Origin: Escherichia coli | Lineage (GTDB): Bacteria > Pseudomonadota > Gammaproteobacteria > Enterobacterales > Enterobacteriaceae | DNA length: 64,000 nucleotides | Assembly (NCBI RefSeq): GCF_024502345.1 | Contig: NZ_JALDNN010000001.1 | Reading direction: 5' to 3' (one strand) | In this document: positions 34,143 through 34,420 of the stretch, piece by piece | Numbering within the stretch: the first letter of the stretch is position 1 | Layout of the letters: each line of letters starts with the position of its first letter | Notes under the pieces: generated by a model | What the model saw: the letters and a program-made list of their open reading frames with translations, nothing else | Told to the model about the DNA's origin: nothing | Database searches by the model: none | Made by a program: the position numbers and the translations under genes

Positions 34143-34197
34143 AGAAAAGCCCCGAGTGATATTTTACTATCAACCCGAGGCCCCCTATATGCTGAAC
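34143..34197 (-). ncRNA. sokC: Probable Sok-type antisense RNA (sokC) overlapping the mokC start
   Basis: Placed from the conserved hok/mok/sok architecture and remembered K-12 coordinates; no structure analysis done. Confidence 0.4.
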
Positions 34198-34398
34198 ACA
34201 TGTAGAGTGCCTCTTACTGACCGTAAGGTCAAGGAGAAGAGAGCAATGAAGCAGCATAAGGCGATGATTGTCGCCCTGATCGTCATCTGTATCACCGCCG
34301 TAGTGGCGGCGCTGGTAACGAGAAAAGACCTCTGTGAGGTTCACATCCGAACTGGCCAGACGGAGGTTGCTGTTTTCACGGCTTACGAATCCGAGTAA
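34189..34398 (+). CDS. mokC: MokC, overlapping reading frame enabling hokC translation (69 aa)
   Basis: ATG at 34189 (MLNTCRVPL...) in frame with and ending at the hokC stop. Confidence 0.7.
   Translation: MLNTCRVPLTDRKVKEKRAMKQHKAMIVALIVICITAVVAALVTRKDLCEVHIRTGQTEVAVFTAYESE
34246..34398 (+). CDS. hokC: HokC (Gef) type I toxin, small membrane peptide (50 aa)
   Basis: MKQHKAMIVALIVICITAVVAALVTRKDLCEVHIRTGQTEVAVFTAYESE with AAGGAG RBS upstream. Confidence 0.85.
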   Translation: MKQHKAMIVALIVICITAVVAALVTRKDLCEVHIRTGQTEVAVFTAYESE

Positions 34399-34420
34399 GT
34401 GCAACGGCGGGGAGTGATCC

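Follow-up and report, generated by a model that had tools for sequence, protein, structure and literature searches.

The hokC/mokC/sokC locus of Escherichia coli described here raises the question of what remains of a type I toxin-antitoxin system when an insertion sequence, IS186, settles a short distance beyond the stop codon of the toxin gene. The window analysed is a 64,000-nucleotide stretch of the chromosome, and a preliminary description of it proposed that the insertion cuts off the 3′ regulatory element of the hokC mRNA and inactivates the locus. Our analysis points, with a probability of about three in four, to a canonical chromosomal locus of the hok/sok type that carries IS186 in the loop of its post-stop hairpin, and in which the insertion would abolish the latent mRNA pool and the delayed killing but leave the toxin ORF intact and under repression. 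What the analysis establishes directly is the anatomy of the locus, the motif targeted by IS186, the sequence of the empty site as reconstructed, the folds predicted for the RNAs and how often each state occurs among genomes.

The locus is flanked by nhaA (32494-33660) and dnaJ (35851-37011), both on the minus strand, as placed by the list of ORFs. The hokC toxin ORF (34246-34398, plus strand) comprises 50 codons and encodes a 50-amino-acid protein that matches the Pfam family HOK_GEF (PF01848, E=1.8e-24, 85.5 bits against a cut-off of 22); the protein accession annotated for hokC in strains HS, 600468 and CFT073 is WP_000809168.1. Overlapping it is the mokC reading frame (34189-34398, plus strand), which starts at the ATG at 34189, runs for 69 codons in frame with hokC to a common stop, and likewise matches HOK_GEF. 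This frame corresponds to mokC (b0018) of MG1655, and its translation is presumed to be coupled to that of hokC. A putative gene for the sokC antisense RNA was placed at 34197-34139 on the minus strand with coordinates carried over from MG1655 b4413, and it differs from the K-12 sequence by two SNPs (57 of 59 nucleotides identical). A -35-like sequence, TTGACC, lies upstream of it, and its predicted fold is a hairpin followed by a U-run. Thus, the gene content given in the preliminary description is borne out for hokC and the overlapping mokC by the ORF list, the HOK_GEF match and the MG1655 counterparts, and for the sokC region by homology. As a separate observation, hokC codon 47, TAC (Tyr), falls within GCTTACGAA (34384-34387, plus strand), a UACG context that resembles a TadA editing motif. 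This site is upstream of the insertion and is unchanged.

The 5′ leader of the hokC mRNA, which ends with the hokC AUG (34096-34248, plus strand; 153 nucleotides), matches the Rfam model RF01794 end to end (122.4 bits against a gathering score of 59, E=1e-28, full model length 1-157). The model begins with GGGUGCUUGA, finishes at the hok AUG and matches the hokC strand, so that in practice it marks the hok mRNA leader and places the mRNA 5′ end at 34096. RF01794 is named 'sok antitoxin', yet it matches the strand of the hokC mRNA and not that of the antisense RNA, and the strand of such matches should therefore not be taken as that of sok. A TATAAT hexamer at 34084-34089 (plus strand), read from the sequence 6 nucleotides upstream of the mRNA 5′ end, is the probable -10 element of the hokC promoter, as its position relative to the start of the RF01794 model suggests. 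A consensus promoter scan gave no call for the promoter of hokC or for that of sokC, and their positions hence rest on sequence reading and homology.

Within the leader, three elements are relevant to control, and their names, like those of the other elements of the mRNA (tac, ucb, dcb and fbi), are taken from PMC9841398. The tac element (GGGUGCUUGAGG, 34096-34107, plus strand) is the 5′ partner of fbi and pairs with ucb in truncated RNAs. The ucb element (AAGCCCC, 34147-34153, plus strand) is an anti-Shine-Dalgarno box for mok, whose partner is the mok Shine-Dalgarno region in the closed fold and tac in the open one. The mokC Shine-Dalgarno region itself (CGAGGC, 34176-34181, plus strand) was located by the fold analysis 8 nucleotides upstream of the mokC ATG. 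The interval first assigned to the locus, 34143-34420, covers the part from sokC to the IS junction; it leaves out the first 47 nucleotides of the leader, which begins at 34096, and the parts of the locus that lie beyond the IS (35760-35843).

IS186 (synonym IS421) occupies positions 34421-35759 on the plus strand, a length of 1339 bp that includes the perfect 23-bp terminal inverted repeats (CATAAGCGCTAACTTAAGGGTTG) at its two ends. It is identical at 1338 of 1339 positions to the reverse complement of IS186A from K-12 MG1655. The transposase ORF (34476-35588, plus strand, with a start that follows the HS annotation) runs in the same direction as hokC and matches Pfam DDE_Tnp_1 (PF01609, E=1.6e-26), and the PGAP name for its product is 'IS4-like element IS421 family transposase'. 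The DDE transposase, the inverted repeats, the near-identity to the reference copy and the target motif together identify the element as IS186, of the IS4 family.

The end of the element that adjoins hokC is the left, transposase-proximal one, as was proposed initially, and the proposed distance of 22 bp was recovered by direct counting. With the start of the IS (CATAAGCGC) placed at 34421, exactly 22 nucleotides (GTGCAACGGCGGGGAGTGATCC, 34399-34420) separate it from the hokC stop codon. This figure depends on the boundary convention because a 12-nucleotide direct repeat (GGGAGTGATCCC) overlaps the IS ends, with copies at 34410-34421 and 35759-35770 and a spacing of 1349. The gap becomes 20 nucleotides if CCC/GGG are counted as the IS ends with a target duplication of AGTGAT, and 19 nucleotides by the MG1655 feature table, in which IS186A is annotated as 1345 bp.

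The element splits a hairpin that follows the stop codon. The left arm and loop (GGCGGGGAGTGATCC, 34406-34420, plus strand) include the left copy of the target duplication, and the right arm with the right copy (GGAGTGATCCCCGCCA, 35760-35775, plus strand) is found past the other end of the element. The empty site reads GGGG-AGTGAT-CCCC and forms the loop of a conserved GC-rich hairpin 8-27 nucleotides after the hokC stop. IS186 inserts almost only at GGGG(N6/N7)CCCC, of which there are 54 sites per K-12 genome, and does so recurrently and in either orientation (PMC5009759). The sequence of the hairpin is therefore the IS186 target motif, which explains the position of the insertion; no other GGGG(N6/N7)CCCC site was found in the window.

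Beyond the element, the remaining parts of the locus are present. The fold-back inhibitory element fbi (CUUCAACGCACCC, 35796-35808, plus strand), which pairs with tac in the reconstructed mRNA and has the same sequence in K-12 and CFT073, is intact but displaced. It is followed by the native hokC terminator hairpin and T-run (AAGCCTGCCC-AC-GGGCAGGCTT TT, 35820-35843, plus strand) in the spacer before the 3′ end of dnaJ, which lies at 35851 on the minus strand. The terminator is a perfect 10-bp inverted repeat and appears as a hairpin in the predicted fold. Both fbi and the terminator have thus been moved 1349 bp downstream and have not been deleted. The preliminary claim that the insertion cuts off the 3′ regulatory element holds in that the IS parts the body of the mRNA from fbi and the terminator, but these elements have been displaced rather than removed. 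The promoter, leader, mokC, hokC and sokC were left untouched by the insertion.

The empty site was reconstructed by in-silico excision of the IS together with one copy of the repeat, which joins 34096-34421 to 35771-35844 and yields an mRNA of 400 nucleotides. The comparison with an uninterrupted locus, as suggested in the preliminary description, was unambiguous: over 652 bp the excised sequence is 100% identical (652/652) to the loci of strains 600468 and OkiPb01716, and it shows few differences from that of CFT073. These uninterrupted loci carry the same elements in a contiguous mRNA unit of about 400 nucleotides that is predicted to close by tac-fbi pairing, whereas in the window this unit is split by the IS.

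Folding with and without the IS-derived 3′ sequence, also suggested at the outset, gave closed and open structures, respectively, for the IS-free mRNA and for RNAs that end in the IS. In the reconstructed 400-nucleotide mRNA, nucleotides 1-12 (tac) pair with fbi, each pair having a probability of 0.94-1.0. The mean pairing between the 5′ end and the tail is 0.99, compared with 0.13 +/- 0.23 (maximum 0.88) for 100 dinucleotide-shuffled tails, none of which reached the observed value. In this closed fold, ucb pairs with the mok Shine-Dalgarno region, and both the terminator hairpin and the post-stop hairpin (GGCGGGG-AGUGAUC-CCCGCC, nucleotides 311-330, beginning 8 nucleotides after the stop) are formed. 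Trimming 40 nucleotides from the 3′ end in silico flips the fold to the open arrangement, in which tac pairs with ucb and the mok Shine-Dalgarno region with dcb. The two folds correspond to the states described for hok of plasmid R1, closed when full-length and open when truncated (PMC9841398). Both tac and fbi are invariant in the hokC sequences compared, which leaves no covariation to draw on for their pairing, and the folds are minimum-free-energy structures that take no account of co-transcriptional kinetics or ribosomes.

RNAs with a 5′ end at 34096 and a 3′ end at the junction, or within about the first 100 nucleotides of the IS, are predicted to adopt the open arrangement (tac/ucb with P>0.94, plus mok-SD/dcb). 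Those ending farther inside the element alternate between the open form and a 5′ metastable hairpin, and transcripts that end in an IS of K-12 orientation have the same predicted open fold. Contiguous closing of an mRNA of about 400 nucleotides by tac-fbi is absent from the window as it stands and is regained only after removal of the IS in silico. The initial proposal would have been undermined by intact fold-back complementarity upstream of the element, and RNA folding found no substitute partner in the 22 nucleotides before the IS. Within the IS, the search for a fold-back partner returned only a weak 4-bp pairing near 34570 and, when the RNA was cut at 35200, a pairing with 35188-35198. 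These were rejected as substitute partners for tac since they are transient or depend on where the transcript is cut.

The same set of elements (tac, ucb, mok SD, dcb and fbi) and the same two predicted conformations are found in hok/sok of plasmid R1 and in F-type flm. The plasmid hok and flm loci also share the post-stop hairpin followed by UUUUCAGG, as in hokC. However, the plasmid hairpin (GGCGGGC-GCAG-GCCCGCC) offers only G3/C3 and is not a canonical GGGG(N6/7)CCCC target of IS186. A further difference is that mok is in another frame than hok in the plasmid flm locus examined, whereas mokC is in frame with hokC here.

These features suggest how the insertion might alter control. From an uninterrupted locus, the mRNA of about 400 nucleotides would close, with tac and fbi paired and the mok ribosome-binding site sequestered by ucb, to create a stable, untranslatable and Sok-resistant pool that is activated slowly by 3′ trimming. 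With the IS present, transcripts that end within it would be unable to form the tac-fbi lock and would go straight to the open form (tac/ucb plus mok-SD/dcb), which would be bound by SokC and then degraded. Since IS-ended transcripts would have no such lock, the latent mRNA reservoir and the delayed killing would be lost, and the toxin ORF would remain intact but repressed. We infer the transcript ends, the folding of the RNA in vivo and the loss of function from the sequence and its predicted folds. Truncated transcripts are predicted to take an open form that is accessible to SokC and can be translated, and the effect would therefore be the loss of an inert, stable mRNA pool and not the creation of a dead gene. 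The hokC ORF and its leader exhibit no decay, and the encoded HokC is identical to that of strains with an empty site, so that the gene carries no evolutionary signature of inactivation.

A quite different outcome would result if transcription continued through the element. The transposase is co-directional with hokC, and read-through from the hokC promoter to the native terminator would give a long RNA that tac and fbi could still close, such that the locus continues to work and its promoter feeds the transposase. In agreement with this possibility, the full read-through RNA of 1749 nucleotides is still predicted to form the tac-fbi pairing (P 0.94-1.0), and a terminator scan found no convincing intrinsic terminator on the plus strand inside the IS, where the sole terminator-like site is weak, with a 5-bp stem and a poor T tail. 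The lack of decay in the hokC ORF and leader also fits. However, the pairing partners would be separated by an extra 1.35 kb with a translatable ORF of 370 codons, and the 5′ end is predicted to be open or metastable while the IS is being transcribed, which would expose the RNA to SokC and ribosomes. In addition, the hokC mRNA of K-12 was reported to end within the IS (PMC3562002), although the element has the other orientation in that strain. On balance, we regard a locus that still functions through read-through as very unlikely, and favour the loss of the latent pool.

The insertion might also be functionally neutral, if an intact chromosomal hokC confers no plasmid-type killing and the hairpin is merely one of the few targets available to IS186. 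HokC is toxic when overexpressed (bioRxiv 10.1101/2025.08.07.668861), but the uninterrupted hokC of strain ECOR24 reportedly gives neither post-segregational killing nor activation by rifampicin (bioRxiv 10.1101/2025.08.07.668861). The IS may thus not be what abolishes that phenotype, and the functional cost of the insertion is uncertain. The target motif fully accounts for the position of the element, empty and occupied alleles coexist with identical flanks, and all three states of the site (empty and both orientations) are common in the population. Against neutrality, phylogroup A-type sequences and CFT073 scarcely differ in tac, fbi, ucb, the hairpin and the terminator, whereas nearby intergenic DNA varies. 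This pattern suggests constraint on the intact RNA architecture in strains that retain it. Neutrality, which we consider less likely than not, is moreover a statement about fitness and not about anatomy, and it does not conflict with what the preferred explanation says about structure, in which the IS separates the mRNA from its fold-back element.

The preliminary description likened the locus to that of K-12. The corresponding locus of K-12 MG1655, hokC(gef)/mokC/sokC with IS186A (b4412, b0018, b4413 and insL1), likewise sits between nhaA and dnaJ, with an identical hokC ORF and with the same insertion site and flanking repeat. The IS at gef/hokC of K-12 is thought to disrupt fbi and processing, and the gene is reportedly still transcribed and regulated by antisense RNA (PMC3562002). 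PMC7232551, citing Pedersen and Gerdes 1999, regards IS elements, point mutations or rearrangement as having inactivated the hok loci of K-12. However, the likeness proved to be one of analogy only, given that the window comes from another strain and carries IS186 reversed at the same site. In K-12, insL1 is convergent with hokC and the right IS end adjoins the toxin gene, whereas here the transposase is co-directional and the left end adjoins. With both loci oriented on hokC, the two elements are 25% identical in the same orientation and 99.9% identical as reverse complements. Consequently, the IS-derived 3′ sequence of any hokC transcript differs from that in K-12.

The shared site, the shared flanking repeat and the 99.9% identity of the IS could suggest that the window holds the K-12 hokC::IS186 allele itself, identical by descent. 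The reversed orientation of the element relative to hokC speaks against this, as do the flanks, which differ from MG1655 at 32 of 1400 and 12 of 1200 positions, and the best match for the region as a whole, which is to a non-K-12 genome (99.6%). Descent from K-12 through a site-specific inversion of the IS within that lineage is likewise disfavoured by the divergence of the flanks. There is thus scarcely any chance that the allele was inherited from K-12, and a K-12 origin of the window was ruled out by the IS orientation and the flanking SNPs. Occupation of the same site in the opposite orientation indicates an insertion event separate from that of K-12, which fits an element that returns again and again to its rare palindromic targets and enters them either way round.

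An origin from E. coli HS was rejected as well, since a 2-kb region is 100% identical to HS but the whole window only about 99%. Among complete RefSeq E. coli genomes, the best match to the 24-kb stretch tested (window 22000-46000) is at most 99.6%. The segment 51148-64000 lies beyond the point, upstream of thrL, at which the HS and K-12 records have their coordinate 1, and the source record hence uses another start point. In HS (NC_009800.1, 19658-23627, approximately window 27500-31500), the neighbouring genes for a fimbrial subunit, an usher and espX1 carry annotations as pseudogenes, either frameshifted or truncated. Rfam matches elsewhere in the window that exceed the threshold are tpke11 (36982-37059, minus strand) in the dnaK-dnaJ spacer, ES003 (18239-18291, minus strand), ES036 (45514-45556, plus strand), which is barely above threshold, and the thr operon leader (50838-50957, minus strand), all of which are expected for this chromosomal region.

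The frequency of the arrangement was assessed among 5426 complete E. coli genomes. The hokC hairpin site is empty in 3815 of these (~70%). IS186 is present in the orientation of the window in 937 genomes by the left junction and 921 by the right (~17%), and in the K-12 orientation in 672 by the right junction (~12%). By right junctions, the three classes sum to 5408 (3815+921+672). A left-junction count of 819 for the K-12 orientation was rejected because the classes would then exceed the number of genomes, and the right-junction count of 672 reconciles the total. The difference consists of about 147 genomes in which the junction between the hokC 3′ end and IS186 in K-12 orientation is matched on the left at a coverage of at least 80%, but the corresponding right junction is missing. 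In many of these the hokC site seems to be empty, and the excess probably stems from IS186 at another hok paralogue whose 3′ end is almost the same.

A SNP directly beyond the hokC stop (TAAGTG versus TAAGAG) is found with both orientations and with the empty site, and all four combinations of this flanking SNP and IS orientation occur. Its distribution argues for several independent insertion events and not for a single ancestral one. Two assemblies from different sources that are both named E. coli 'C' (NZ_CP029371.1 and NZ_CP020543.1) have the hokC IS186 in opposite orientations and also differ at this SNP.

Equivalent insertions are found at paralogous loci elsewhere in the chromosome. In hokE::IS186B of K-12 and hokX::IS186 of strain EC416, the IS lies in the corresponding post-stop hairpin, 21-22 nucleotides after the stop, and the hokE site reads GCGGGG-AGTAAT-CCCCGC. 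The hokX::IS186 arrangement has been reported from E. coli B, too. In EC416 (NZ_AP027404.1, about 1820-3540), this element lies between cysH and iap with flanks that do not match (left GGGTAAAACC, right GGGTTTTTCC), and its far end adjoins a CRISPR array. This structure suggests an IS-mediated deletion or rearrangement after insertion and not a simple insertion.

A known hot spot for IS186, the lon promoter, is likewise a GGGG(N6/7)CCCC site that is hit recurrently and in either orientation (PMC5009759, PMC3045373). In contrast to that case, IS186 has here entered a sequence that forms a structural element in a toxin mRNA, and not a promoter, and the hokC insertion is a standing polymorphism in natural strains and not a laboratory mutation. 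One could speculate that the post-stop hairpin of chromosomal hok genes is a structurally constrained landing pad that IS186 hits repeatedly, so that hok loci could be safe havens through which the species retains the element, or insertion could be a recurrent and selected means of disarming the toxins. The basis for this idea is that about 30% of complete genomes carry IS186 in the hokC hairpin, in both orientations and on several flank haplotypes, and that hokE and hokX are hit equivalently. We consider it unlikely in this form, and it was not found stated in the literature searched, which did not include the primary 1999 paper on chromosomal hok loci. In the co-directional orientation, read-through from the hokC promoter could link expression of the transposase to transcription of hokC.

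That an IS can lie just downstream of a chromosomal hok gene and part it from its 3′ control region was recognised for K-12 as early as 1999, according to later accounts of that work. The present locus is a further, independently arisen case of this configuration, with the opposite orientation and in a strain other than K-12. Alone it is of little significance, because the hokC::IS186 arrangement was already known from K-12. For annotation, it means that not every hokC::IS186 locus is the K-12 allele: the two orientations occur at comparable frequency and provide hokC with different IS-derived 3′ ends. The match between the hok hairpin and the IS186 target motif bears on why E. coli retains target sites for this element, a question that was raised in PMC5009759. 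Finally, natural isogenic-like pairs with identical flanks, with and without the IS, would make possible a clean test of the function of chromosomal hok genes.
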